A DNA stretch of 44,514 nucleotides. It comes from a virus. Of this stretch, positions 667 to 43,368 are shown piece after piece. The position numbers were made by a program, and so were the translations under genes. The first letter of the stretch is position 1. Every line of letters starts with the position of its first letter. Location: UHGV virus genome UHGV-1355725. One strand, 5' to 3'. The notes below the pieces were generated by a model. That model was not told where the DNA came from. It saw only the letters and a list, made by a program, of their open reading frames with translations, and searched no databases.

Positions 667-3162
667 TTAATTAAAGCCATTGCTGAATCCGTCGGAGAAA
701 CCGCTGCCGTATGGCGCGACGCCGTCGTATTTGTAGAAATCCGCCTCATAATTAATCCCGGTAATCTTAACTGTTCTGTCATCCCCGGGGTCAACTGTAG
801 AAACAAGAATCATCTGAGCATTATGCCTTGCTTCGTTGCCAAATGAAAACTCAGTTTTTAGGGCGCTATTCCCTGTGTAAATTGCCTCCTGCGGCGCGGA
901 TAGCATAATCACTTCACGGTCATGACCCCCTGGAACAACAGCAACACTCTGGACACCGCCGTCGCGCTTCTTAAGGATAAGAGAGTGGTCATCACCAGGA
1001 GTGAATGTGACAGGCTGCGATAAAGTCAGGGCAAGACCATTAACAGCAACAACATAGCCGTCTTGGGGTGCAATACGTGAACCTTTAACTACACTTATTG
1101 CCCGTCCTGGAAGCACAAAAACACCTTCTTCTGTTGCCGTGAAAGACACAGTTACTTTTTTCAACAAGTTCTTTTGATACCGTCGGTACGCGGCCCAATA
1201 TGCCTGTCGATAGTTACGGATACCTTTAGAGTCATACGTTTCGGTATTAATTCCTCCTTCGGCCGGGATGCTAATAGTCTCTTTTACGTTCGTATCCGGG
1301 TCGATATAAGAGAACTTAAGACTATCGTATACCTGAGCGTCGTTAAATGTCCTGGTCCACTTCTCGGATGCCGTTGTTTTGCTACGGTGGGTGAATACCA
1401 TCTCCGGCCCCATGCGAGGGCGCTCGAAATCCAGTAATATGTCCTGCCCTTTACGATACGGCGTACAGAAAATAGCGTCGGCTATGGTGCTGATTATGTC
1501 CTGCATAGTCGTTTTGTAGTCATCGAACGTGTAGCAGAATTGCCCTGCCTCCGCGTTCCCAAAATAACCTTCAATCTCTGCCTGCGTAGCCAGCAACTTA
1601 TCCATGTTAGCTGTGGTGAGATTGAGATTACCTACTACCGGGTCGCGGGCGAGACGGATTAATGACTGAACGGCCTGGGTATTAGGCGTCATTACAGTGT
1701 CGAACACACCGTTACCGAGGTATTTGTAGACCATCTCCGTAGCGACCATTCGCAGTTGTGGTTGTTTAATCTCCGCCGCCCGCGGCGTCTGCTTACGCGC
1801 GGAGTGTACGGTAGTACGATTGCCGTAATGCGGCGTAGTGTCGCGAACCTGCCCGTAAAGGTTGATGTAGGAAACCTCGTCTACCACTGTACCGCCAAAG
1901 TCAAAATCAAAGTTACTAACCCTGCGACAGCGCACCCTAACCCTGGATTCAATTGGAAGGTCAGCGTACACAGTGGCACCCGTGTAATCGCTAGTACGAC
2001 CTGAAATAGTTCCCTGTTTATTGTATACAGGACCATAAGGAACTCCGTCATCTCCTATTAATTGGTACTGAACTTCAACGGTTACAGAGGTCCCCTGTTT
2101 ATTGCCGTCGTCTTTATACATGCCATTTGCCGCGGCGAAGTTTGCCACGACGCGCCCAACCTTTATTCTGTTAAGAGAGACCCAATCTGTTAGGCTAGCG
2201 TCATATGTGCCGGTAGGCCCTATGGTCGCGGCTTTATCCTGCGTTACATAGCCTTCACGCACTCCTCCCCCCTGATCTGGTAGAGTCTGCCACTCAGATA
2301 GTTTTGGGGAAGCATTTACCGTTATCTGGAATTCGTCCACACTTAATACGGAGTATACCCCGTCTAAATTACCACCGCCTTCCGGCCGTATCCATGTAAA
2401 TGTAGCTTGGTCTCCCGGGGCAATGTAGGTATTGAATGCCGAGTCTCCCGTTGGGTCGGTTATTGTCCCTGCGGTCCCGACAAGACGCGCGCGGGCCGAG
2501 CTGCCCACGTTGTTAGCGAGGTCATTTGGTGCTTTTAAAACAGCTCCGTCTACTTCATTGGACGCTATAGTTATGAATAACCCCTGGTTTATGGGGTCGC
2601 CGACCAACAACTGCGGGGCATTCGTGTTGTTGGGTGAAGTGAAAGGCGCGTACACAGCAACGGAGGTCCCGGTAATCTCCTGTACTTTAGTGTCCCCGTC
2701 GGTAATATCTTCTGCTTTAATATCAAGGTAACCGCGACCAGCATCATAGTATCCGTACTCAATAACACGACCGGCGGTATTAAATACCTTATACGTGGTC
2801 ATGAGGTCATTAGGGATAGTCTGGACCCTGCCGCAAATATCATACGACCGTTCATACGGACGCGATTTATTATTTCGGTCTGTCAGGCTGTTGTTGGGTG
2901 ACTCCGCTTGCTGGTTAGCAAGACTTGTTTTTGGTGTTTTCTGTGACGGTGAAATCAGCTTAGTAACAAACTTAAGTACACCTAACGGGTCGAGCAGTTT
3001 ACCCAGAAAACCGCCGCCACCCCCGGCACCCTCAATGATGTGGAATACATCGTCTTCTTTCAGCGCTTCGAAGTTTTCTGTAACTTCTGTATCTTCGCCG
3101 ATTTCACCTCGATAGATGCGAACGGGTACGCCGTCCGGGATGTTAGTGACGACGTATTCCAT
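667..3162 (-). CDS. large distal tail protein (tail tip / central fibre, J-like)
   Basis: 831-aa ORF from ATG at 3162 (MEYVVTNIPDG...); last large gene of the tail module before the tailspike; Gly-rich segment GAGGGGGF. Function is positional inference. Confidence 0.45.
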   Translation of the reverse strand: MEYVVTNIPDGVPVRIYRGEIGEDTEVTENFEALKEDDVFHIIEGAGGGGGFLGKLLDPLGVLKFVTKLISPSQKTPKTSLANQQAESPNNSLTDRNNKSRPYERSYDICGRVQTIPNDLMTTYKVFNTAGRVIEYGYYDAGRGYLDIKAEDITDGDTKVQEITGTSVAVYAPFTSPNNTNAPQLLVGDPINQGLFITIASNEVDGAVLKAPNDLANNVGSSARARLVGTAGTITDPTGDSAFNTYIAPGDQATFTWIRPEGGGNLDGVYSVLSVDEFQITVNASPKLSEWQTLPDQGGGVREGYVTQDKAATIGPTGTYDASLTDWVSLNRIKVGRVVANFAAANGMYKDDGNKQGTSVTVEVQYQLIGDDGVPYGPVYNKQGTISGRTSDYTGATVYADLPIESRVRVRCRRVSNFDFDFGGTVVDEVSYINLYGQVRDTTPHYGNRTTVHSARKQTPRAAEIKQPQLRMVATEMVYKYLGNGVFDTVMTPNTQAVQSLIRLARDPVVGNLNLTTANMDKLLATQAEIEGYFGNAEAGQFCYTFDDYKTTMQDIISTIADAIFCTPYRKGQDILLDFERPRMGPEMVFTHRSKTTASEKWTRTFNDAQVYDSLKFSYIDPDTNVKETISIPAEGGINTETYDSKGIRNYRQAYWAAYRRYQKNLLKKVTVSFTATEEGVFVLPGRAISVVKGSRIAPQDGYVVAVNGLALTLSQPVTFTPGDDHSLILKKRDGGVQSVAVVPGGHDREVIMLSAPQEAIYTGNSALKTEFSFGNEARHNAQMILVSTVDPGDDRTVKITGINYEADFYKYDGVAPYGSGFSDGFSNGFN

Positions 3163-3224
3163 AGGACTACTCGTGTGACGTTTACGGTCGAAGGTTCCGT
3201 CTTCGTTACGGGTGTAATGTAGTA

Positions 3225-3590
3225 TTAGCGCCAAAATTCTATCTCCGCATAAGTGTCTCGCAAGTCTTCCAGACGGTCTAATCTGACCTGACGGCTTGCG
3301 AGTTCGCAATGACTAACCATTCCGTCATAATATACGCCAGCGTGCCAGATTACACGGTTTCTGTGCCGCGCTGCCATCAGAACGGCATCGAAGTTTTGCG
3401 GAGTTTCAACACGTACAAGGCCTTTAGTGTCTTTATGGCCTTCTTCAAAGGCCGCATTAATCTGTGTTGGTGAGGCAACATTAAACTCCGGCGTGTCCAA
3501 ACCGGCGTCTGCGCGAACATTGCGGACATGGTGCCAGCAATTATGGCGGCGAAAGTCGTAAGGCAGACCCGTGTAGGTGTTAATTTTCAT
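3225..3590 (-). CDS. minor tail / tail assembly protein
   Basis: 121-aa ORF in the tail-tip cluster; Cys/His-containing motif RHNCWHH; overlaps neighbours by 4 nt (operon coupling). Confidence 0.35.
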   Translation of the reverse strand: MKINTYTGLPYDFRRHNCWHHVRNVRADAGLDTPEFNVASPTQINAAFEEGHKDTKGLVRVETPQNFDAVLMAARHRNRVIWHAGVYYDGMVSHCELASRQVRLDRLEDLRDTYAEIEFWR

Positions 3591-4102
3591 GTTGATAAAA
3601 TCCCACGCAATAGGGGTATTACTAAAGGCGTCATAAGTTCGCCTGTCGCCCTCTGATTGAGCATTGGTGCGCCGACGTCCGCCGTGAATATACCTTTTTC
3701 CTGGTTAATTGACTGTAACTCGTACACAACAGGCCCATCAGCAGGATAAGACAAATCAGTACTAACAAAACGGCGGAATATGAATTTAGGTAGCACGGTA
3801 TTATCGGGCGGTATCCTGTCCATCTCATCGTCTAACTGGTTACCAATGTCAGGCAATGCGAACGACGCCCGCTGGTCCATGTCGTTATTGTTGGCGGCCC
3901 CTTTAGCCTCCATAGGTGTAGCCTCAAACGTTACGACTTCTCCTGTCTCTAGCGTTGCCGTCAGGTCGGAAGTCCCTCGCACAAGATAGTACGTCTTCGA
4001 CAGCAACGGGTGGCTGATTTGCAACGTGATGTAGTCCATCTCGCCGTCTGGGTTTGAGGCCAGCTTACGGCGGTAGGCTGCTTCTACTGATTCCCGACTC
4101 AT
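3587..4102 (-). CDS. minor tail protein
   Basis: 171-aa ORF in the tail-tip cluster downstream of the tape measure gene. Confidence 0.35.
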   Translation of the reverse strand: MSRESVEAAYRRKLASNPDGEMDYITLQISHPLLSKTYYLVRGTSDLTATLETGEVVTFEATPMEAKGAANNNDMDQRASFALPDIGNQLDDEMDRIPPDNTVLPKFIFRRFVSTDLSYPADGPVVYELQSINQEKGIFTADVGAPMLNQRATGELMTPLVIPLLRGILST

Positions 4103-4105
4103 AAG

Positions 4106-5500
4106 TTAACCGTCCACATTAAAATCAATACGAGTGATATATTTACTACCCCACGCCGAATCCGCTTGGGGTATGGAGGCGTAACCGTCAACAGACGGAA
4201 CGTTTACCACAGTGCCGTCGGAATAGGTAATGTCGATGCTTGTTGCGCCGTTCATTGTTACTTTTGCTGATGCCGTCGTTCGGGTTACTGGCGACGCCTC
4301 AGTTACTACCGGCGACGTAGACAGGCCCAAGGAGTCACTTTGCGGTGTGCAAACGAGAACTCCGTTGGCCCCATCACCAGCAAATGTGGTTAAGTTTGAA
4401 TCGTTATGGACCCAAATCTGCATAGTAATGGCGCTGTATCCCCCTGCCGGGGCTGTTACTATTTCTGAGAAACGGAACCAACCACCCCCAAGATTTTCTA
4501 TAGAAGAGTTGGCGCTGCCGCCGATAATAACTCCGCTAAGCAGGTTTACGGTAACATCCGCTACAAATACCGCGTTATTGGCGATTCGTATACGGATATT
4601 GCGATACCCGTCCGCCTTAGCTATAACACTGAATGTACATACTCCCCCTTCAAGAATCTCAAACACCGGAGACTGTCCGACTAAGTGAGTGCCGTTATCT
4701 GTCGTTGGGGTTAGTTTAAAACAACCATTAACCAGCATTCCGGTTTGCGGTGATGGGGTTATTGACATGCGTGTAGTGGCCCACGCCACGTCCGCCAGAT
4801 TAGTGTTATGTAGTATGACGTTCTTAGATGTATATTCCGGTGGTACACGACCCGCAGCAACCCCATCAATAAACGTAAGGGGCCATTCATTTACGGCAGA
4901 CTGCACAAGACCGCCGTTTCGGTTGATGTAGTAAACCTGCGGCCCATCGTAAACAATGCGGCTATCCAGCGTGGACGCCAAAAGGTTAATCGGCGGGTGT
5001 CCTGCAGGCCCTTCATCGCTCCAGATGCGCGGGAACGTCGTCTCGTAGTTCGCATATATTTTCAGGAAACTACCCAAACCGTCTCCGTAACAACCGAACA
5101 AATCGGGAAGATTCTTGGTAAGACAAGTGTCTTCCTGAATTGCTGTGCGCTCTGCGGTAGCGGTGAACGTAATTACCCAGTTCTTGCCGTCGTCGGTGCT
5201 GTCGCTAATGTCAGACGTAATAAGCACCTGGTGGTCTTCGATACCTAACCCGGTGTCGTGCGGCATGATAAAAGACGATGCGCCGCCGTCTATGTTATTC
5301 AGGAAGCTATAGAAAGCCTGACGGCCTAGCGACGATACGACCAAGGTAACGCTAATTGGCACCGGTTCAAAGTATGTATCACGCCCCTGGCGTGGCACGC
5401 CGCCCTGAACTTCTGTACGCCAGATATTACTCCCTCGCATTTGGGAGTACCCCTTCGACACTATAGGCCGAAGGGACATAGGGAATCTCAAAGAAGACAT
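4106..5500 (-). CDS. minor/distal tail protein
   Basis: 464-aa ORF, ATG at 5500, immediately downstream of the tape measure gene (stop 5504). Confidence 0.4.
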   Translation of the reverse strand: MSSLRFPMSLRPIVSKGYSQMRGSNIWRTEVQGGVPRQGRDTYFEPVPISVTLVVSSLGRQAFYSFLNNIDGGASSFIMPHDTGLGIEDHQVLITSDISDSTDDGKNWVITFTATAERTAIQEDTCLTKNLPDLFGCYGDGLGSFLKIYANYETTFPRIWSDEGPAGHPPINLLASTLDSRIVYDGPQVYYINRNGGLVQSAVNEWPLTFIDGVAAGRVPPEYTSKNVILHNTNLADVAWATTRMSITPSPQTGMLVNGCFKLTPTTDNGTHLVGQSPVFEILEGGVCTFSVIAKADGYRNIRIRIANNAVFVADVTVNLLSGVIIGGSANSSIENLGGGWFRFSEIVTAPAGGYSAITMQIWVHNDSNLTTFAGDGANGVLVCTPQSDSLGLSTSPVVTEASPVTRTTASAKVTMNGATSIDITYSDGTVVNVPSVDGYASIPQADSAWGSKYITRIDFNVDG

Positions 5501-8548: not shown

Positions 8549-8655
8549 TCTTTAATCCTTTGGTTAAGAGGTTACAGGTTAAGGTTAATGCGCCAGACGG
8601 GAACCACCCGCTTTTCGTGTGCGACACTAGGCGCAAACTTATTCTAGCACACTAC

Positions 8656-8687
8656 TTGCGCACCCCAATATAATAGGGTACTATTCA
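8656..8687 (+). promoter_or_regulatory. class-1 promoter with embedded inverted-repeat operator
   Basis: TTGCGC (8656-8661), 17-bp spacer, TACTAT (8679-8684); inverted repeat AATAG-GGTA-CTATT at 8672-8685; followed by RBS AAGGAG and ATG 8715. Confidence 0.5.
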
Positions 8688-8714
8688 CTCACACCGACAA
8701 TGAAGGAGTTTAAA

Positions 8715-8906
8715 ATGTCCAGTTTACCAGTTTCCTTAATTCTGTTTGCGCTACTAGCCTATTTTGCGCCTTTCCTGGTTGCGTATTTCCGCGACCATAA
8801 AGCGAAGTTAGCGATATTCATGGCCAACCTGTTTCTGGGCTGGATTCTGTTGCCGTGGGTATTTATTTTAATCTGGGCTTGTAACTCGAATGTCAAAGAG
8901 AAGTGA
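8715..8906 (+). CDS. small membrane protein, superinfection-immunity-like
   Basis: 63 aa, two hydrophobic segments; motif YFAPFLVAYFRDHKAKLAIFMANLFLGW...ILIWA resembles the small superinfection-immunity membrane protein family; encoded opposite to the surrounding tail genes. Confidence 0.5.
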   Translation: MSSLPVSLILFALLAYFAPFLVAYFRDHKAKLAIFMANLFLGWILLPWVFILIWACNSNVKEK

Positions 8907-8944
8907 GCTAGTATAGGACAAATCCTAAACACGAGGAAGTAAGC

Positions 8945-10084
8945 ATGGCCCAGAAGAAAATAACCGACGAACAGTTACAGGAAGAATTGAACGCCGGGAT
9001 GAAGAATGTAGACATCGCCCGTAAATACGGCATCTCAGACCGCGTTATTCGTATCCGTAAAGCAAAACTAGCTAAGAAAGGCGTAGGTCATGGGCGTGAC
9101 GTTAGTCACCTTGTGCCAGATGGCTACAAGATTAAGGGCACGTCGTCACTTGTGGACGAGTTCGGCAACACTAAGTTGCAATGGGTTAAGACCGACACCG
9201 ACGCCGAACGTCAGGTTGAATTGATGAAAGCCGTAGTTGAAGGCATGAAGTCAGAGATTACGCCGGTTGCGCCTGTTAAAGCGACTCGCGCCAAACGCAA
9301 CGATAAACTACTCAATCTTTACACGGTATCTGATTTTCATCTCGGTATGCTGGCATGGGCCGACGAGAGCGGCGACGACTGGGATATGAAGATTGCGGAA
9401 GACCTGTTCTCCCGTTGGTTTGATGCTGCATTTCAGAAAGCGCCTGATGCGGGAACAGGAGTTATTAACCTGCTTGGAGACTTCGCGCACTTCGATAGTC
9501 TTGATGCCGTTACCCCTGAGTCGCGTCATGTGTTAGACGCCGATACTCGCTATCAGAAACTAGTTCGCTACATGATTCGTATGGTGCGTCGTGTTGTTGA
9601 TATGGCGCTTGTTAAACATCACACAGTCAAACTCTTAATAGTTCAAGGTAACCACGACCCTGTAGGCTCTGTATGGCTCGCCGAAATGTTCTGTACATTG
9701 TACGATAACGAACCTCGCGTATTTGTGGACACCTCCCCCGACGTATACAAGATGGTCCAGCACGGGAAAACTACGCTATTCATGCATCACGGACACCGTG
9801 CGAGATTCGACGCCATAGAGTCAGTAATGATTTCTAAATTCCGTAAGGCTTTTGGAGAAAGCACATACAGCTACGCTCATGTAGGGCATCTACATCATCA
9901 GAAATTAGTAGAAAGCCGCAATATGGTAGTCGAACAACACCGAACCCTGGCCGCGAAAGATGCTTACGCATCGCGAGGGGGCTGGATGTCCGGTCGTAGT
10001 GCTAACGTGATAACTTATAGCGCCGAATATGGGGAGGTGGCGCGCCTCACAATATCACCTGAAATGATAGGAGGTATAAATTGA
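8945..10084 (+). CDS. HTH domain fused to calcineurin-like metallophosphoesterase
   Basis: 379 aa; N-terminal HTH-like segment (VDIARKYGISDRVIRIRKAK); C-terminal metallophosphoesterase motifs DFHLG, GDFAHFD, GNHD, HHGH, GHLHH; RBS GAGGAAG before ATG 8945. Confidence 0.6.
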   Translation: MAQKKITDEQLQEELNAGMKNVDIARKYGISDRVIRIRKAKLAKKGVGHGRDVSHLVPDGYKIKGTSSLVDEFGNTKLQWVKTDTDAERQVELMKAVVEGMKSEITPVAPVKATRAKRNDKLLNLYTVSDFHLGMLAWADESGDDWDMKIAEDLFSRWFDAAFQKAPDAGTGVINLLGDFAHFDSLDAVTPESRHVLDADTRYQKLVRYMIRMVRRVVDMALVKHHTVKLLIVQGNHDPVGSVWLAEMFCTLYDNEPRVFVDTSPDVYKMVQHGKTTLFMHHGHRARFDAIESVMISKFRKAFGESTYSYAHVGHLHHQKLVESRNMVVEQHRTLAAKDAYASRGGWMSGRSANVITYSAEYGEVARLTISPEMIGGIN

Positions 10085-10554
10085 CATGGAATGACGTTTA
10101 CGAATACGAAAACGGGAATCTTTACGCTAAGAGCAGCGTAAACCCTAAGTACCCGAAAGGACGTAAAGTAGGGTACGTTGACCACCGCGGATATGTAAGA
10201 ACTAAACTAGGATCAAAAATGACATTCGCCCACAGAATTATATGGGAAATGTTTAACGGAGCTATACCAGAAGGCAAGGAGATTGACCATATAAACGGTG
10301 TGAAAAGCGATAACCGTATAGAGAATCTTCGACTGTGCGACCGGCACATAAACTGCAAAAATGCAGCAAAGCGCAGGGATAACTCGTCTGGTGTTACCGG
10401 GGTTAGTAAAACATACAACGGTAAATGGGTCGTTCAAATTCAATATAACGGGAATAGAATAGCCAAGCGTTTCGACCAAAAAGAAGACGCCGTAAGATAT
10501 GCAGAATGTTTTTACAAAGAAAAGAAAGACTTTACTGAGAGGCACGGAAAATGA
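10081..10554 (+). CDS. HNH homing endonuclease (HNH plus AP2-like DNA-binding domain)
   Basis: Motifs HRIIWEMFNG...IDHINGVKSDNRIENLRL (HNH) and GVTGVSKTYNGKWVVQIQYNG...F (AP2-like); TTG start overlapping the upstream stop (TTGA), RBS AGGAGG. Confidence 0.8.
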   Translation: MTWNDVYEYENGNLYAKSSVNPKYPKGRKVGYVDHRGYVRTKLGSKMTFAHRIIWEMFNGAIPEGKEIDHINGVKSDNRIENLRLCDRHINCKNAAKRRDNSSGVTGVSKTYNGKWVVQIQYNGNRIAKRFDQKEDAVRYAECFYKEKKDFTERHGK

Positions 10555-10781
10555 CTTCAAAATACAACCGCACAATGACAAATACTCACGGCAGCACTAT
10601 GACTGTAGACGTTTACGATGTGCTGCGCGCCTTCGACATCCGCGACCCGGCGTTGCAGCACGCATTAAAGAAACTTTTGTGTATGGGCTTGCGTGGGCAC
10701 AAAGACACCGGAACCGACTTAGCAGAAGCAATTGAAAGTCTGGAAAAGTTACGGGAGTATAGAAGCAATATCGACGAATAA
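10551..10781 (+). CDS. hypothetical protein
   Basis: 76-aa ORF, ATG overlaps the HNH stop (ATGA); same insertion operon. Confidence 0.45.
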   Translation: MTSKYNRTMTNTHGSTMTVDVYDVLRAFDIRDPALQHALKKLLCMGLRGHKDTGTDLAEAIESLEKLREYRSNIDE

Positions 10782-10795
10782 CTACGAGGTATTTT

Positions 10796-10918
10796 ATGAA
10801 ACTAATTATTAACTTCTTTAAAGCCTTAACAGGTAACGATTTTGAGATTGACGGAGGTTGGCTAGTGTATGACCCTAATTTTGATACTTGGTTGTGGCAT
10901 AAAGAGAAACCTCGATGA
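10796..10918 (+). CDS. small hypothetical protein
   Basis: 40-aa ORF with RBS ACGAGG, last ORF before the terminator. Confidence 0.25.
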   Translation: MKLIINFFKALTGNDFEIDGGWLVYDPNFDTWLWHKEKPR

Positions 10919-10920
10919 GA

Positions 10921-10948
10921 AAAAGGCCCCGAAAGGGGCCTTAGTTTT
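10921..10948. terminator. bidirectional rho-independent terminator
   Basis: Hairpin AGGCCCC-gaa-GGGGCCT (10924-10941) flanked by A-run on one side and T-run on the other; lies between convergent genes (plus insertion operon, minus major tail gene). Confidence 0.6.
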
Positions 10949-16873: not shown

Positions 16874-17137
16874 CTATTCCAGAATATTCCTCACGTAATC
16901 CTGCAACATGAACACTTTCAGTCTCAGTTGCCGTACACATTCAGCGTTCTGAACGTCGATAGCTAAATCCTCATCCGCGTTGCTACTTGGCGGGGCCAGT
17001 TTGCACGGCGGCTGCATCATCGTCATATCCGGGGATGGAATTGGCGTTGGCGACTGCGCTGGACTTGAGCTGCACGCGCTCAGGGTCAAAAGTGCACACG
17101 CTGCGACCAGGCGTTTTAATGTACTTAACGACTTCAC
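16874..17137 (-). CDS. o-spanin (Rz1-like outer-membrane lipoprotein)
   Basis: GTG start with RBS AGAGGTGA; signal peptide with lipobox LSAC; Pro-rich mature part (CSSSPAQSPTPIPSP...); begins inside the i-spanin gene in another frame and extends past it. Confidence 0.55.
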   Translation of the reverse strand: MKSLSTLKRLVAACALLTLSACSSSPAQSPTPIPSPDMTMMQPPCKLAPPSSNADEDLAIDVQNAECVRQLRLKVFMLQDYVRNILE

Positions 17138-17369
17138 GGGTAATCACCTCTGATTTCGTCTTGCCTTCGTTGTCAGCGGCGGCGGCCTTCGATTCATCCT
17201 GCTGCTGCCGTTGTGTTTTCTTCGCTAACTCAGCCTGTGCTTTCTGCTGTTGCTGCGAAACGAGATTCGCCCGGCCTTCGTTCCAGCCGCTGCGATACTG
17301 GTAGACGCCGTGTGCGTAAGCCAGGATGATGAAACATGCCGCCGCTACGACAGTTGCTTTAAGATTCAT
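16983..17369 (-). CDS. i-spanin (Rz-like)
   Basis: 128 aa; N-terminal TM anchor (MNLKATVVAAACFIILAY), Gln/Ala-rich coiled coil; RBS AAGGAG; overlapping lipoprotein gene in alternative frame. Confidence 0.55.
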   Translation of the reverse strand: MNLKATVVAAACFIILAYAHGVYQYRSGWNEGRANLVSQQQQKAQAELAKKTQRQQQDESKAAAADNEGKTKSEVITREVVKYIKTPGRSVCTFDPERVQLKSSAVANANSIPGYDDDAAAVQTGPAK

Positions 17370-17636: not shown

Positions 17637-17688
17637 TATTCCAACATTTACAATTCATAAGAATAACTGGAATAGGTAAATAAATAGT

Positions 17689-17720
17689 TTGCAGACACCA
17701 ATATAATAGGGTACTATTCA
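17689..17720 (+). promoter_or_regulatory. class-1 promoter with embedded inverted-repeat operator
   Basis: TTGCAG (17689-17694), 17-bp spacer, TACTAT (17712-17717); inverted repeat AATAG-GGTA-CTATT 17705-17718; RBS AGGAGG and ATG 17745 follow. Confidence 0.5.
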
Positions 17721-17744
17721 GTTAACTTAAACAGGAGGCGATAT

Positions 17745-17975
17745 ATGGGTACATACACACATTCTATAAACTGGAAAGGCAGACGTGGTTTGGCGGTTCT
17801 CGAAGGGGGTGTTTCAGGCCCCCACGCGTTTGGGTGGTGGCTAGTGCCATCGTATTCAAACAAACATGGCGGGCAGGACTACGACTGGAATAACGCCGTT
17901 CCTACTAGATTCAAAACAAAGAAAGCCGCGTTGGATGCACGTAAAGAGTTAAGAAAAGGAGGATTATTTTTATAG
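17745..17975 (+). CDS. hypothetical protein (single-gene insertion)
   Basis: 76-aa ORF with own promoter and terminator, on the opposite strand to the flanking late genes. Confidence 0.5.
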   Translation: MGTYTHSINWKGRRGLAVLEGGVSGPHAFGWWLVPSYSNKHGGQDYDWNNAVPTRFKTKKAALDARKELRKGGLFL

Positions 17976-17980
17976 TAAAA

Positions 17981-18008
17981 CTAAGGCCCCATTATGGGGC
18001 CTTTTATC
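17981..18008. terminator. bidirectional rho-independent terminator
   Basis: Hairpin AGGCCCC-attat-GGGGCCT (17984-18002) followed by TTTT; lies between convergent stops. Confidence 0.6.
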
Positions 18009-18468
18009 ATTCTGGCTTAGTGACCTTCGCCGCTTTGCTTACCACCTCTACACCATCGGCATCGGTAACTTTAACGAAGTATTCACCCGCCGCGTTAACC
18101 GTCAGAGACAAAGCCTCTTCCGGGGCGTTGACTACTTCCTTACCGTCTTTGTACCAGGTCAGCACATATGGCGCTTTGCCCGCCTTAACTTCAACAGTGA
18201 TAGTTGCGCTGCCGTCTGCTGGTTCGACGTCTTTCGGTTGCACCGAGAAGTACACGTCACCCGCGTCCGCCAGATACGGAATCTCATAAAGCATACCCGC
18301 CGCCGGGAGCGCAATACCGGTTTTATCCGCAAACGGCATATCGTCTACCGGTGTACCTAGTACACTTTCATCTTCGATAAATACCACATTCTCGCTAGAG
18401 CCAGACACGCGGGCGTACTGGACTACGCGACGAGAAGGTACATCAGTTACTTTGAAAAAGCCCATCAT
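18007..18468 (-). CDS. Ig-like domain structural protein
   Basis: 153 aa; C-terminal Ig-like segment (ATITVEVKAGKAPYVLTWYKDGKEV...GEYFVKVTDADG); coupled to the head morphogenesis gene. Confidence 0.45.
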   Translation of the reverse strand: MMGFFKVTDVPSRRVVQYARVSGSSENVVFIEDESVLGTPVDDMPFADKTGIALPAAGMLYEIPYLADAGDVYFSVQPKDVEPADGSATITVEVKAGKAPYVLTWYKDGKEVVNAPEEALSLTVNAAGEYFVKVTDADGVEVVSKAAKVTKPE

Positions 18469-20405
18469 TATTCCCCTTTCAGATAATCAGCAACACGTCT
18501 ATCGAGTTCCGCCATCTGCTTAAGCGTGAGCGGATTCCCGAAACCATCTACAGATATTACGCGAAACTCTTCCGGCGATATACCGCTGTTGCGGAAAATC
18601 TTACCCCGCACCGGGCCTAACGCCTGGTCCTGAAACCATGCAGGTTGTTGTTTAAGGAACTCGTAATAAGTGGTGTCCGCACTTACCTGAGTTCCGCCAT
18701 CTGCACCCTTAGCCGCGCGTTTTGCGCCTTTATCCAGGAAGTCGAACTCTGAACTGATTACAGGTGCCGTGGTACTTCGGCAGCCAAAATGGGCTGGGGG
18801 CATTGGCCCTTTACCAATCTCCCACGTCATTCCGTCTCTGGCCCTGCAATTCTTGACTATCGCACTACCTGCTGTATAATATCCTTGACTACTAGAGAGG
18901 GTATAAACATGGCACGTTCTAAACTCGACGCTTATGCGGATGATATTTGTTCTTTGTACCGAGATGGCACTCCCGCCAGCATCATAGCCAAGAATTACGG
19001 CGTCACTACCACCACGGTAACAACATTTCTCAAGAAGCTCGGACTCATGCATGATCGACCCCGTGGTTGGGTTTCTAACGACACCATTTTGAATCAAAAA
19101 AGGGCTATAGAATTGTTCGAGTCCGGCGTCCCGCCTATTGAGTGCATAAGAAGGACCCAAGTCAGCAAAACAGTTTTCTATTCTATGGTCAAAACACTTG
19201 GCCTCGCTAAGCGCGGGCACACTCACAGGACATTCACCCCGGAGGAGAAAATCGCCAGAGCTATCGTCCGACAGCAAAGCGGCGCTATGAATAAGACTGA
19301 AACCATCGCTTTTGAATTGTTTAATTCCGCTGGCGTGGACGTAGTTCCGCAGTTTGCAATCGGCCCGTACAATGTCGATTTTGCCATTGAGTCCCACTCC
19401 ATCGCCATAGAAATCTGTTGCCGCGGGACTCGTGCTTACCATTTTCCTGATGGGGAAATCAGCGAGCGTATTAAAAATATAATCCGCTCTGGCTGGCATG
19501 TTTATGTTCTTCACTGTTTCGAGCACAGTCACTTTGTCAACAGTGGTATACAAGACATGCTTAGTTGGATCGAGTTCATCAAGCGGAGTCCATCCGTATT
19601 GCGTGAGTACAGGGTGTTTCGGGGTGCCACTGAACTTCTCGCCGTTGGAAAGTTCGATGGTAAAGATTTTTCCTGAATAGAGTCCGCGCATTACCGCGTC
19701 CATCCCCGCGATGGGCGCTAATTCTGTTTCAGCCGTGAAACACGTTGTACTGGTACGGCTGTCCAATGTTGATACCCACTCATATTTCTCGATGATGTCG
19801 TCGTTCTGGCGGTACGTCTCGTTACGTGCTTCATTGGACACGTGAGACAGCGCGGTGCGGATTACAGTAGCCGCGTTACGTTCAGAGATGTCAGCCAGTC
19901 CGCCAGCGCCTACAACACTTTTAACAATCTGCCGCGTAGTTTGGCCTTGTACGAAGCCCATCTTAACGCCAGTTACCAGGCGCGCGACTTCTGTTTCACC
20001 CCAACCTGACATCAGCTTGGTGAAGTCAACAGGCTTGTCGCTCAGTGAGAGCGGCTGAAACTCGGCGGCGGCCCACACCTGTTCTGCGGTAGGTGTAACA
20101 AATTCCGCGTTAACGTTGGCGGTCAGTGTCTTTACGTTCCACTCAGCCTCATACTTCGCCAATTCCTTAAGGTCTTCTGTCAGCTTTGTTTGCCAGTCAC
20201 CTGTAAGCCAGGTTAGCGCTTCTTCAAGGTTGAGTAACAGTTTATTCAGTCGCGCAGTGCTCCGCCCGTCGTCGCCGAATAACAGCACCTGCCGTTTGAT
20301 TTCGTCCCGCATTTCCTGAATGAACGGTGCAAGGTCTTTCACTTCTCCGGAAGCGGTTCGTTGCAGCCATATCTGGTGGCTGATTAAGGATGTAAGTAAG
20401 CTCAT
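18468..20405 (-). CDS. head morphogenesis protein (SPP1 gp7 / Mu F-like) interrupted by an intein
   Basis: ATG 20405 with RBS AGGAGG; F-like motifs WVSTLDSRTSTT (before the intein) and GKGPMPPAHFGCRS (after); 298-aa insertion with intein signatures between them; located just after the portal gene. Confidence 0.7.
   Translation of the reverse strand: MSLLTSLISHQIWLQRTASGEVKDLAPFIQEMRDEIKRQVLLFGDDGRSTARLNKLLLNLEEALTWLTGDWQTKLTEDLKELAKYEAEWNVKTLTANVNAEFVTPTAEQVWAAAEFQPLSLSDKPVDFTKLMSGWGETEVARLVTGVKMGFVQGQTTRQIVKSVVGAGGLADISERNAATVIRTALSHVSNEARNETYRQNDDIIEKYEWVSTLDSRTSTTCFTAETELAPIAGMDAVMRGLYSGKIFTIELSNGEKFSGTPKHPVLTQYGWTPLDELDPTKHVLYTTVDKVTVLETVKNINMPARADYIFNTLADFPIRKMVSTSPAATDFYGDGVGLNGKIDIVRADCKLRNYVHASGIKQFKSDGFSLIHSAALLSDDSSGDFLLRGECPVSVPALSEAKCFDHRIENCFADLGPSYALNRRDAGLEQFYSPFLIQNGVVRNPTTGSIMHESELLEKCCYRGGSDAVILGYDAGGSAISVQRTNIIRISVEFRTCHVYTLSSSQGYYTAGSAIVKNCRARDGMTWEIGKGPMPPAHFGCRSTTAPVISSEFDFLDKGAKRAAKGADGGTQVSADTTYYEFLKQQPAWFQDQALGPVRGKIFRNSGISPEEFRVISVDGFGNPLTLKQMAELDRRVADYLKGE
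18853..18880 (+). promoter_or_regulatory. near-consensus sigma70-type promoter inside the intein, antisense to the head morphogenesis gene
   Basis: TTGACT (18853-18858), 16-bp spacer, TATAAT (18875-18880); RBS GAGAGGG and ATG 18909 follow. Confidence 0.5.
18909..19676 (+). CDS. nested antisense gene: HTH domains plus DUF559/Vsr-like (PD-(D/E)xK-type) endonuclease domain, candidate homing endonuclease
   Basis: 255 aa from ATG 18909; two HTH-like segments (IIAKNYGVTTTTVTTFLKKLGL; IECIRRTQVSKTVFYSMVKTLGL); C-terminal YNVDFAIESHSIAIEI...RSGWHVYVL resembling Vsr/DUF559 endonucleases; lies entirely within the intein on the opposite strand. Confidence 0.55.
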   Translation: MARSKLDAYADDICSLYRDGTPASIIAKNYGVTTTTVTTFLKKLGLMHDRPRGWVSNDTILNQKRAIELFESGVPPIECIRRTQVSKTVFYSMVKTLGLAKRGHTHRTFTPEEKIARAIVRQQSGAMNKTETIAFELFNSAGVDVVPQFAIGPYNVDFAIESHSIAIEICCRGTRAYHFPDGEISERIKNIIRSGWHVYVLHCFEHSHFVNSGIQDMLSWIEFIKRSPSVLREYRVFRGATELLAVGKFDGKDFS

Positions 20406-20448
20406 AGGCCCTCCTGTAGTATCGACAGTGTAACGCATAAAAATAATA

Positions 20449-20481
20449 TTTGCAGACACCAATATAATAGGGTACTATTCA
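20449..20481 (+). promoter_or_regulatory. class-1 promoter with embedded inverted-repeat operator
   Basis: TTGCAG (20449-20454), 17-bp spacer, TACTAT (20473-20478); inverted repeat AATAG-GGTA-CTATT 20466-20479; 40-nt block identical to the copy at 17689. Confidence 0.5.
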
Positions 20482-20506
20482 GTTAACTTAAACAGGGGGG
20501 TTAAAA

Positions 20507-20791
20507 ATGACACACAAATTTAAAGGTACAGACGGCGCATGGGTTAATCACGGAACAGCTATCTGGGCGGGGGACGTTTATGTGGCCGAGGTAATGAGTA
20601 TGCGGGAAAAGGACTCCGTAAAATTAGCTAACGCAAAACTTATCACCTCGGCACCCGAGTTACTTGAAGCACTTCGCCAGCTTCGCGATTACGTCGAGGA
20701 TGTTTGTGCAGTATCTTCTGATGATTGCCATGAAGACCATCCATTAAATCGGGCCAACAGAGCAATCAAGAAAGCATTAGGAAAGAAATAA
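20507..20791 (+). CDS. hypothetical protein (single-gene insertion)
   Basis: 94-aa ORF between the head morphogenesis and portal genes on the opposite strand; own promoter and terminator. Confidence 0.5.
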   Translation: MTHKFKGTDGAWVNHGTAIWAGDVYVAEVMSMREKDSVKLANAKLITSAPELLEALRQLRDYVEDVCAVSSDDCHEDHPLNRANRAIKKALGKK

Positions 20792-20794
20792 AAA

Positions 20795-20820
20795 TAAGGC
20801 CCCATAACGGGGCCTTTTTC
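20795..20820. terminator. bidirectional rho-independent terminator
   Basis: Hairpin AAGGCCCC-ataac-GGGGCCTT followed by TTTTTC; between convergent stops (20791 plus, 20822 minus). Confidence 0.6.
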
Positions 20821-20821
20821 T

Positions 20822-22297
20822 CTACTCCGATTGTTGTTGCTGCGCCGACTGCGGAATCTCCCCCGCTACCTGAGTACCCGCACCTAACGGCAGCGGCGCG
20901 TCCTCGATAGCATTCTGAATGTCCTCGTCTGTCCAGTCGGTTACGCCCGCCTTGCGCAACGCTGCGTAGTACGCAGTCGCTGGCAGCAAACCGGCGTTAA
21001 TATCGGCCATCCACTGAGCACGGTCCTGAGCGGTCATCGGTTGCAGGAAGAACTCCATGTTCAGTTTGAATTCAATCTCTGTGCCTTCACGCAACCCTAG
21101 CATTGCAGCTACCCAGCGCAGCGCATCGGTATACGCCATGCTTACGTTACGTGCGATTGTCGCCATAACAGACGTATCAGCACCGCGTTGCAGGCGGGCT
21201 GATTCGGCGGTGATTTGCTGCGTAGGGGTGATAAGCTGCGCACCAATCTGGATGGCCTGATTTTCTTTATCCAGCATGTTCTGCTTAGCGAGGTTGTTCT
21301 CCCCCGCCTGAACCAAGAACGCATTGCCGCCGTGACCGATGTTATGACCTGAGCGCGACCCCATACGCACGCCGTGAGGGTTGGCTTCTGCCCACTGTTC
21401 CATGCTCATGTTTTCACCGGGGGCGATGAACAGAGTGGGCTGGCCTACAACGAAGCTGGACTCCTCATTGTCTGCGCTGTTACGGAAATGCCCGATATTA
21501 AGCTCAGCTAACGGTAGCAAAGGCGCGTCATCGATGGTTGCGTCGTTGTTGCTTGCTCCGATGAACGTGAACGGGATTTTGCCGCGCAACTGTTCGCCAA
21601 GTTCCGGGAATATTTCGATTACTTCATCCTGGGCGCCACCTTCTGCGTCGAAGCGGTAAATGCGCTGGCGGTAGCGGCCATCAATCAGGTCGAGAACGCG
21701 GTATTGCTCCCCGAACTTTGTTTCGAACTCAGCGCCTGATTCAGAGTACTCCCATACTTCTCGCAACACGACCATCGTCACGCGGTTAACCGAACCGATG
21801 CGGGTCAGTCGCCAGTTGATGATGTTCTCTGCGGTGTAGAATGCGATGGCCGGGTTTAATAGCCCCGCGTTCTGTTCGGCTGCCGTTGCCGCAGCTGTCT
21901 CCGGGGCGTCCACCAGCAACCCGCCACGACCTACCGAGTCAATCTCCATTAGTGTATCCTGCGCGTGTTGCCACAGTCCGACACCGGAACCGTCGGCGTT
22001 ACGTAACAGGTACTCAAGCTCAGGCGGAATAATCTGCTCGGGGTCTTTGCGCATAACCGACCCCACCATCCCCGCCAGGGTACGTTTAGTGAAGTTGTAG
22101 CAGATAGCGCCGTTCTCATATTCTTCCTGGCGCTGGGCCGCGTAGGTGGGGTCAGGTTCGTTCTTACCGACGTTGCGAAGATAGCGGATAAGGTCGCCTT
22201 CCAGTGCGTGGCGCACCTTCTGCCATTTATCGAAGTGATGCAGCCATTCCCGGTGTTTTGTCTTAACACCCTGATTCTGACCGTTCATAGTTAACAT
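20822..22297 (-). CDS. portal protein
   Basis: 491-aa ORF, ATG 22297 with RBS AAGAGGA, directly downstream of the terminase large subunit; function positional. Confidence 0.65.
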   Translation of the reverse strand: MLTMNGQNQGVKTKHREWLHHFDKWQKVRHALEGDLIRYLRNVGKNEPDPTYAAQRQEEYENGAICYNFTKRTLAGMVGSVMRKDPEQIIPPELEYLLRNADGSGVGLWQHAQDTLMEIDSVGRGGLLVDAPETAAATAAEQNAGLLNPAIAFYTAENIINWRLTRIGSVNRVTMVVLREVWEYSESGAEFETKFGEQYRVLDLIDGRYRQRIYRFDAEGGAQDEVIEIFPELGEQLRGKIPFTFIGASNNDATIDDAPLLPLAELNIGHFRNSADNEESSFVVGQPTLFIAPGENMSMEQWAEANPHGVRMGSRSGHNIGHGGNAFLVQAGENNLAKQNMLDKENQAIQIGAQLITPTQQITAESARLQRGADTSVMATIARNVSMAYTDALRWVAAMLGLREGTEIEFKLNMEFFLQPMTAQDRAQWMADINAGLLPATAYYAALRKAGVTDWTDEDIQNAIEDAPLPLGAGTQVAGEIPQSAQQQQSE

Positions 22298-30210: not shown

Positions 30211-30231
30211 TCCTCTGTCTCGTTTCGATAA

Positions 30232-30264
30232 GTGAATAGTAACCTATTATGTTGGGGTGTGCAA
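30232..30264 (-). promoter_or_regulatory. class-1 promoter with embedded inverted-repeat operator (minus strand)
   Basis: Minus strand TTGCAC (rc of 30259-30264), 17-bp spacer, TACTAT (rc of 30236-30241); inverted repeat AATAG-TAAC-CTATT 30235-30248. Confidence 0.5.
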
Positions 30265-30306
30265 GAGAATAGTTACGTTGCCGTTGTGATTCTTTCGTTT
30301 CTTAAA

Positions 30307-43339: not shown

Positions 43340-43368
43340 AAAAGGCCCCGTTTGGGGCCTTAGTTTTA
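43340..43368. terminator. bidirectional rho-independent terminator
   Basis: Hairpin AGGCCCC-gttt-GGGGCCT with flanking A/T runs; between the plus replication module and the minus tailspike gene. Confidence 0.6.

Follow-up and report, generated by a model that had tools for sequence, protein, structure and literature searches.

Two antisense accessory-gene cassettes, probably morons, in the late head-gene operon of a Kagunavirus phage

Genes at the Locus

The virus genome UHGV-1355725 is a stretch of 44,514 nucleotides (nt), referred to here in its full length as the window, and it contains two small plus-strand genes that lie among minus-strand late genes, each framed by the same promoter-like block upstream and the same type of terminator hairpin downstream. 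The open reading frames (ORFs), which encode proteins of 76 amino acids (aa; 17745..17975) and 94 aa (20507..20791), were found where a preliminary description of the DNA had placed them, and every neighbor of either ORF is a late gene on the minus strand, again as described. Judged by their sequence, the source phage is a Kagunavirus, a K1G/K1H-like siphophage of E. coli (Guernseyvirinae). When a 3.7-kilobase (kb) region was compared with phage records, about 200 from Guernseyvirinae matched, chiefly Escherichia Kagunavirus and Salmonella relatives; even the best of these matches show just 93% identity over 84% of the query, and most cover only 56-69% of it.

The order of the late genes was read from the annotated relatives fEg-Eco06, Snoke, K1H, vB_Eco_K-02, EF2-1, SHAK7693, Schulenburg, and fBC-Eco01. 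On the minus strand it runs terminase, portal, head-morphogenesis gene, Hoc-like gene, small ORF, and spanins, followed by scaffold and major capsid. Two of the intervals are of interest here. Slot A extends from the i-spanin gene (16983-17369; the spanins together occupy 16874-17369) to the Hoc-like decoration gene (18007-18468) and holds the 76-aa gene, while slot B extends from the head-morphogenesis gene (Mu F/SPP1 gp7-like; 18468-20405) to the portal gene (20822-22297) and holds the 94-aa gene. The cassettes had been described as flanking the head-morphogenesis gene, and this they do, except that the unit between them is the pair of head-morphogenesis and Hoc-like genes rather than the former alone. 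The GC content of the cargo ORFs is 46-47% and that of the whole slots is 44%, compared with 52-56% in the flanking late genes.

The Promoter-Like Block

Upstream of each ORF, and in the same orientation, lies a block that is identical at 48 of 48 positions between slot A (17688..17735) and slot B (20449..20496). The identical block had been noticed before, although its length had been given as 40 nt; a 48-nt repeat of this kind arose in none of 100 shuffles. The block comprises TTGCAG-17-TACTAT, an internal TATAAT, the inverted repeat AATAG-N4-CTATT, and a leader that runs into the Shine-Dalgarno sequence, the start of which is still included, so that 9-10 nt separate the end of the block from the ATG at both ORFs.

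The core of this element, CCAATATAATAGGGTACTATTCA, is present in four copies in the window, at 8665 (+), 17698 (+), 20459 (+), and 30233 (-). The third copy of the class-1 block, as it had been named, spans 8655..8702 on the plus strand and heads an Imm-type island inside the tail genes; the fourth, at 30218..30265 on the minus strand, is placed by colinearity with the Snoke annotation in the divergent control region, where it faces a run of small genes. At all four sites (17698-17720, 20459-20481, 8665-8687, and 30233-30255) the spacer is conserved, with a perfect TATAAT and the palindrome AATAG-N4-CTATT over the presumed -10 element. The reverse complement of the core, tgAATAGTa-ccTATTat-T, has been reported from a PHIRE analysis as a repeated 'phage promoter' in fBC-Eco01 (PMC9825357). 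Because the block heads both the Imm-type immunity island and the small genes of the control region, we infer that it would be an early promoter for the host RNA polymerase.

Among relatives, EF2-1 is the only one of the 11 comparison loci with no recognizable slot A block; nine of the other 10 carry it with 1-12 mismatches, and the distant Logan contig L006 has a diverged copy. The slot B block does not vary with the cargo, being identical at 48 of 48 positions in all five filled loci that were examined, and this invariance stands beside a synonymous divergence (dS) of 0.25-0.36 in the adjoining genes.

The Predicted Bidirectional Terminators

A hairpin of the form AAGGCCCC-N5-GGGGCCTTTT starts 5-8 nt after each cassette ORF. 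In slot A (17983..18005) it is common to the 76-aa gene on the plus strand and the Hoc-like gene on the minus strand, and in slot B (20796..20818) it is common to the 94-aa gene and the oppositely oriented portal gene. The stems are 8-9 bp long and GC-rich, with a T-run on both strands; the predicted folding energies of both hairpins are -15.4 to -16.3 kcal/mol on either strand (for slot A, -15.8 on the plus and -16.3 on the minus strand), with z-scores of -3.1 to -4.1, and a terminator scan rates both as terminator-like on both strands. The GGCCCC-stem terminator reported after each ORF was thus confirmed at the sequence level by hairpin search, folding, and scan. Since the fold is stable and T-runs are present whichever strand is read, the hairpins are taken to be two-way terminators, and factor-independent terminators are predicted directly downstream of both ORFs.

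Hairpins of this GGCCCC type occur four times in the window, at 10925, 17985, 20798, and 43344. The first (10920..10942) closes the Imm-type island and faces the tail-tube gene. The last, at 43344..43359, is likewise bidirectional and probably marks the convergent junction of the tail-fibre and replication genes, as judged from colinearity with Snoke.

Contents of the Slots in Related Phages

The comparison with related genomes that had been proposed bore the expected result, in that cassettes are present, absent, or replaced in the same slots. The slots were delimited by tblastn anchors in 12 loci, and the plus-strand ORFs of each were listed. Slot A contains any of eight alternative cargoes or none: the 76-aa gene (the window and L006, with contig L018 as a third case), a 67-aa gene (fEg-Eco06), a 173-aa beta-clamp-like gene (Snoke and Schulenburg), a 33-aa membrane peptide alone (K1H) or together with a 114-aa lipoprotein (K-02 and fBC-Eco01), a gene of the 94-aa family (LM02P1), a 104-aa gene (LM08P1), or a 63-aa gene (SHAK7693). 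It is empty in EF2-1. Slot B is empty in five phages, holds the 94-aa gene in four, and holds the 173-aa clamp-like gene in two (fBC-Eco01 and SHAK7693); its length is 81-87 nt when empty (K1H, Snoke, fEg-Eco06, Schulenburg, and LM02P1) and 417-655 nt when filled. Two cargo families therefore use either slot, since the 94-aa gene, found in slot B of the window and slot A of LM02P1, and the 173-aa gene are each seen in both. The flanking proteins across the 12 loci are about 90-97% identical.

In a wider phage collection, the slot B junction is filled in 19 records and empty in 87, and the empty junctions span Escherichia, Salmonella, and Raoultella phages; for this reason slot B is probably a derived insertion. 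The preliminary description had spoken of two insertions. That holds for slot B relative to most relatives, but not for slot A, the block of which is found in nearly every comparison locus.

The boundaries of the replaced unit can be seen when slot A of LM02P1 is aligned with both slots of the window. The flanks follow window slot A. Exactly where the 48-nt block begins, the sequence becomes that of window slot B, and it reverts after the last base of the terminator. Furthermore, the leader up to the Shine-Dalgarno sequence is common to five unrelated cargoes, and the unit that is replaced is therefore essentially the ORF alone. Between filled and empty versions of slot B, the whole intergenic region is replaced, and the junction shows neither a target-site duplication nor terminal inverted repeats. 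The empty slot carries a hairpin, AGCCCC-TTTC-GGGGCT, at the place where the cassette terminator stands in filled slots, and this resident hairpin may be the homology that seeded slot B. The empty-slot hairpin is conserved, being found at about 3512-3549 of locus L003 (K1H) and at equivalent sites of L001, L002 (Snoke), and L008. A further, independent insertion is seen in Schulenburg (L012, 2855-3424), where a free-standing HNH endonuclease gene lies between the Hoc-like and head-morphogenesis genes.

Comparison within the window and between genera indicates that the block and the terminator are the phage lineage's own regulatory parts and were not brought by the cargo genes. The frame is considered local to the lineage because the promoter core and the terminator type each recur at two further sites of the window. 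The idea that the genes take the frame with them from one genus to another was ruled out: in the phages swi2 and Skate, the 94-aa homologue stands behind a different, canonical promoter, TTGACG-17-TATAGT, and in the metagenomic contigs L005 and L007, the 76-aa gene lies in an operon.

The Cargo Proteins

By the evidence of their conservation both ORFs are real genes. Rather than being unconserved, which would have spoken against this, both are under purifying selection, with ratios of nonsynonymous to synonymous substitution (dN/dS) of 0.08-0.27 for the two together, 0.08-0.11 for the 76-aa gene and 0.08-0.27 for the 94-aa gene. The homology searches and structure predictions called for in the preliminary description did yield homologues of both products; as to function, they returned no informative match. 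In PADLOC, no family was found at E values up to 1 for either protein or for an endonuclease-like protein encoded nearby (see below).

The 76-aa protein belongs to a rare family. It has 10 metagenomic homologues of 67-95% identity with 34 invariant columns, including the core WWLVPSY.N..GGQD.DWNN, and no tblastn match among 50,697 phage records. A remote search of 1.84 billion representatives recovered about 10 small relatives; the repetitive long proteins also matched were judged spurious. The AF2 model is unusable (pLDDT 48.9). In the distant L006, the 76-aa gene occupies slot A with a diverged promoter and terminator. In two 48-kb metagenomic phage contigs, L005 and L007, it lies inside a replication operon and is translationally coupled to a DEAD/ResIII helicase gene, the stop codon of which it overlaps. 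Another antisense slot is used in L019, a 44.6-kb ENA scaffold of a distant Guernseyvirinae-like phage: there the 76-aa gene and a 57-aa partner (3501-3901) lie directly past the scaffold gene and before the next minus-strand genes. The same contig has an additional plus-strand island with an HNH_3 gene before its Hoc-like gene.

The 94-aa protein, in turn, is a member of a large phage and prophage family, as indicated by its match to phrog_1273 (E 1.1e-16 over residues 3-93). A single-query search gave 129 homologues, all 129 of which carry the precomputed tag PF27050.1; the assignment to PF27050 is made through these tags, the Pfam copy searched with the 94-aa protein being one that lacks the model. 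A profile search found at least 4784 clusters, all 'hypothetical'. The family has a conserved N-terminal motif, FKGTxGPW, a hypervariable middle, and a conserved C-terminal half of three helices, and the predicted structure (pLDDT 83.7) is a beta-hairpin plus three helices, for which the BFVD matches are solely uncharacterised phage proteins. Our guess is that a conserved scaffold with a hypervariable center would give the protein a binding surface that evolves quickly. In swi2 and Skate, the homologue is the first gene of a short operon, and a beta-clamp-like gene is the last; the operon adjoins the major capsid gene in both phages (L015, swi2, a Swiduovirus, 3001-5268; L017, Skate, a Skatevirus, 2869-4841). 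As the two genes share one operon there, the two cargo families may be functionally linked. In the lambdoid phage mEp213, a homologue lies directly downstream of N in the pL operon.

Because the class-1 block is read as an early promoter, we infer that both proteins are non-structural early accessory factors. A role in DNA replication, host takeover, or counter-defense is our best guess, in preference to one in virion assembly; it comes from their genomic company, namely the coupling to a helicase gene for the 76-aa protein and the clamp-like operon and N/pL context for the 94-aa protein.

Origin and Exchange of the Cassettes

Considered together, these results lead to the interpretation that the two units would be morons (with a probability of roughly 0.8), that is, self-contained accessory transcription units, in this case antisense, residing in two intergenic slots of the Kagunavirus late head-gene operon. 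The moron concept is said to have been put forward by Juhala, Hendrix et al. in 2000 for lambdoid and other tailed phages. Classical morons belong mostly to temperate phages, are co-oriented with the late operon, and are expressed from the prophage. Like them, the units described here are extra genes between conserved late genes that are adjacent in close relatives, with their own upstream promoter-like element and downstream factor-independent terminator and a lower GC content, and each cassette is dispensable, as natural phages without it exist. Unlike them, they are antisense and occur in a virulent phage, and one promoter/leader and terminator are reused for many cargoes. The earlier suggestion of a portable expression cassette is supported within the genus, where the same block and terminator type frame unrelated ORFs in different phages. 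The cassettes are thus a known kind of phage genome feature with unusually clean boundaries.

In this model, each unit would consist of the lineage's promoter-like block with its common leader and Shine-Dalgarno sequence, one small ORF, and a GC-stem hairpin with T-runs on both strands, which would end both the cassette transcript and the converging late transcript. In addition, the block (48 nt) and the terminator (about 25-30 nt) would double as short homology arms. Recombination within the arms, between co-infecting relatives or from slot to slot, would swap the ORF exactly and leave the essential neighbors intact; each slot would therefore be a hypervariable site for accessory genes.

A precedent is found in the T4-like phages, in which repeated motifs of an early promoter plus a stem-loop (PeSLs) bound indels and replacements of small ORFan genes; it has been proposed that recombination acts on these motifs and so shuffles the modules (Arbiol et al. 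2010, PMC2839356; Comeau et al. 2014, PMC4122927). The likeness lies in replacements between close relatives that are bounded by repeated motifs, here a frame with eight cargoes. However, in a PeSL, the stem-loop lies in or beside the promoter to form a single compact, composite motif between co-directional genes in large hyperplastic regions, whereas in Kagunavirus the promoter and the stem-loop stand at opposite ends of the gene, with only four copies of each. Nor does the block itself form such a composite motif, as its only inverted repeat, AATAG-N4-CTATT, is 5 bp long and AT-rich. A bolder version of the model, which is doubtful and put forward tentatively, holds that the block and the GGCCCC terminator are selected exchange adaptors of a genus-wide siphovirus cassette-swapping system, a split-motif analogue of the PeSL, and that slot B was made de novo by capture of the resident hairpin. 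If so, Kagunavirus and Guernseyvirinae would trade small early host-takeover or counter-defense genes at high frequency, and the 94-aa family would be a widespread, uncharacterised class of target-specific early effectors.

Several points weigh against reading the units as expressed morons. TTGCAG-17-TACTAT agrees with the sigma-70 consensus at 7 of 12 positions (hand count), and a simple sigma-70 scan makes no promoter call at the 48-nt block. Consequently, what stands of the promoter described before each ORF is a repeated block in the right place and orientation, and its activity is deduced from position and conservation. The fully conserved spacer and the palindrome suggest a candidate protein-binding site, and the palindrome looks like the operator of a dimeric regulator. 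Furthermore, function by itself could explain the perfect conservation of the block, with no need for gene conversion. In phages in which slot B is filled, the predicted two-way terminator behind the portal gene would be expected to keep late transcription from reaching the head-morphogenesis gene, and no convincing minus-strand restart promoter was found for that gene; a candidate inside the 48-nt block was dropped, being only a weak TTAAGT-16-TATTAT (8 of 12 positions by hand count) at which the scan makes no call. The published time course of K1B4 (Guernseyvirinae) is too coarse to help and contains no usable per-gene values for the cassette genes. Finally, no evidence of function was found for either product: the 76-aa protein has no match in Pfam, PHROG, NCBIfam, or PADLOC, the 94-aa protein has nothing informative in Pfam or NCBIfam, its model has no match among solved structures, and profile searches of both proteins against PDB sequences returned nothing.

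Other explanations of the locus have also been considered. It is improbable that the units are static, vertically inherited accessory genes, in which like promoters and terminators mean like regulation and have no part in exchange. Purifying selection alone could keep the parts identical, given that the same promoter core and terminator type are found at two other sites with other genes, and the 76-aa protein of L006 (74% aa identity) is about as diverged as the products of the flanking genes (55-87%), as vertical descent in slot A would predict. Yet this explanation has to contend with two cargo families that occupy either slot in different phages, with a homology switch in LM02P1 that coincides with the block and the terminator, and with eight alternative cargoes among the 12 loci, the flanking proteins of which are about 90-97% identical. 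A regulatory role, in which the units would be antisense RNAs or transcription roadblocks that tune the late genes (for example, portal versus head-morphogenesis) and the ORFs would be incidental, is very improbable. The units do oppose the late operon head-on, the terminators are bidirectional on paper, and the filling of slot B puts one of them between the portal and head-morphogenesis genes; against this, both ORFs are under strong purifying selection and have homologues in sense operons of other phages, many relatives have no slot B cassette, and the terminators stand directly past the stop codons, so little antisense RNA to the neighbors is to be expected.

The possibility that the cassettes are actively mobile selfish elements, of the homing-endonuclease-gene, transposon, or integron-cassette type, which insert themselves, is extremely improbable. 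Truly selfish DNA is indeed close by, in the form of an intein with an antisense endonuclease gene, the HNH gene of Schulenburg, and an HNH_3 gene in the island at 8655. However, Pfam, PHROG, and NCBIfam show no nuclease, transposase, or integrase domain in either cargo, the cargoes are small proteins with no relation to one another, neither an integrase nor an attC-like partner was observed, and the target-site duplications and terminal inverted repeats that were sought at the slot B junction are missing. With recombinase genes, attC-like sites, and target duplications all absent, mobility of the integron or transposon kind was rejected.

The slots are where phages that are otherwise about 90-95% identical differ, and they may therefore help to explain why near-identical isolates differ in host range or sensitivity to defense systems. 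This is of some practical interest, as Kagunavirus phages are commonly isolated with a view to treating infections by K1 and uropathogenic E. coli, and the frame of block, ORF, and terminator marks natural, tolerated sites for payload genes in the engineering of these phages. In general terms, the cassettes add a siphovirus example to what is understood of morons and PeSL-type shuffling and do not establish a new principle.

Another Plus-Strand Island

The island at 8655-10942, which lies inside the tail genes on the plus strand, has the class-1 promoter core and a GGCCCC-type terminator. It encodes an Imm-type superinfection immunity protein (Imm_superinfect, E 2e-12), a metallophosphoesterase, and an HNH_3 endonuclease (E 2.5e-21), together with a 76-aa protein of no known function. 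In Snoke, three small hypothetical genes are present in place of the island's HNH gene and 76-aa ORF.

An Intein with an Antisense Endonuclease-Like Gene

The head-morphogenesis gene between the two slots contains a 298-aa intein (18849..19742, minus strand), inserted at ...SRTSTT and followed by C. The intein has the expected signatures, which are CFTAETEL with Cys1, TPKHPVL (block B TPKH), and AIVKN with the terminal Asn, together with the +1 Cys; the Pfam Intein_splicing match (E 4e-4) is under the cut-off. When the extein is rejoined, it reads ...SRTSTT|CRARDGMTW..., the same form as in the intein-less alleles of relatives, among which head-morphogenesis alleles with and without the intein are both found.

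Antisense within the intein is a 255-aa ORF (18909-19676, plus strand), which does not appear in the preliminary description, with a near-consensus promoter, TTGACT-16-TATAAT, at 18853-18880 on the same strand that agrees with the consensus at 11 of 12 positions. Reverse-complementing this ORF accounts, codon for codon, for 256 of the 298 intein codons. The ORF has matches to HTH_7 (E 1.6e-4) and REase_MTES_1575 (E 6.8e-4; 20.1 bits versus a cut-off of 38.2), both below the Pfam cut-offs, and its product has no solved-structure match by sequence; the product is a putative homing endonuclease with a helix-turn-helix and a Vsr/PD-(D/E)xK-like domain. None of its 34 Leu and Ser codons is TTA, CTA, or TCA (P about 0.006). 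Since only these codons would put stops in the intein frame, their avoidance keeps that frame open. The same intein/antisense arrangement is present in fEg-Eco06, where the ORF is unannotated.

Snoke has a different intein in the same gene (L002, MK931441.1, 2854-4713), which is inserted at another Cys (...PAHPN then C), 26 codons downstream. Here, too, there is a codon-aligned antisense ORF (L002, 3229-3981), which is homologous to that of the window (25% identity, E 3e-11) and in which TTA, CTA, and TCA account for 0 of 33 codons (P about 0.005). The window and Snoke have two independent inteins with related antisense endonuclease genes.

Inteins with antisense homing endonucleases, including those with minor-capsid exteins, have been described in actinobacteriophages (Gosselin, Arsenault and Gogarten, bioRxiv 10.1101/2025.01.02.630785), and fractured genes in marine metagenomes represent a split-intein form (Dassa et al. 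2009, PMC2677866). As in the actinobacteriophages, the intein is contiguous and interrupts a minor-capsid protein, and its middle, read on the opposite strand, is a free-standing, putatively Vsr-like endonuclease gene that has control signals of its own. In contrast, the phage here is an enterobacterial Kagunavirus, and two inteins occupy two Cys sites of one gene, with homologous endonuclease genes. The arrangement thus belongs to a known, rare kind, in connection with which a 1998 study by Gorbalenya is reportedly also to be named.

Annotation of Related Records

The comparison also brought to light mislabelled genes or taxa in the GenBank records PQ571290.1, OR594180.1, MK931441.1, and OM272052.1. 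The EF2-1 record gives the 94-aa gene as 'Efflux RND transporter permease subunit'. The 173-aa protein is a 'RusA-like Holliday junction resolvase' in SHAK7693 and a 'DNA polymerase III sliding clamp' in Snoke and fBC-Eco01; labels of both kinds turn up in PHROGs, and the one Pfam match, to a clamp domain, is weak (E 0.0056). SHAK7693 itself is filed under Autographiviridae/Kayfunavirus, yet it is colinear with Kagunavirus.

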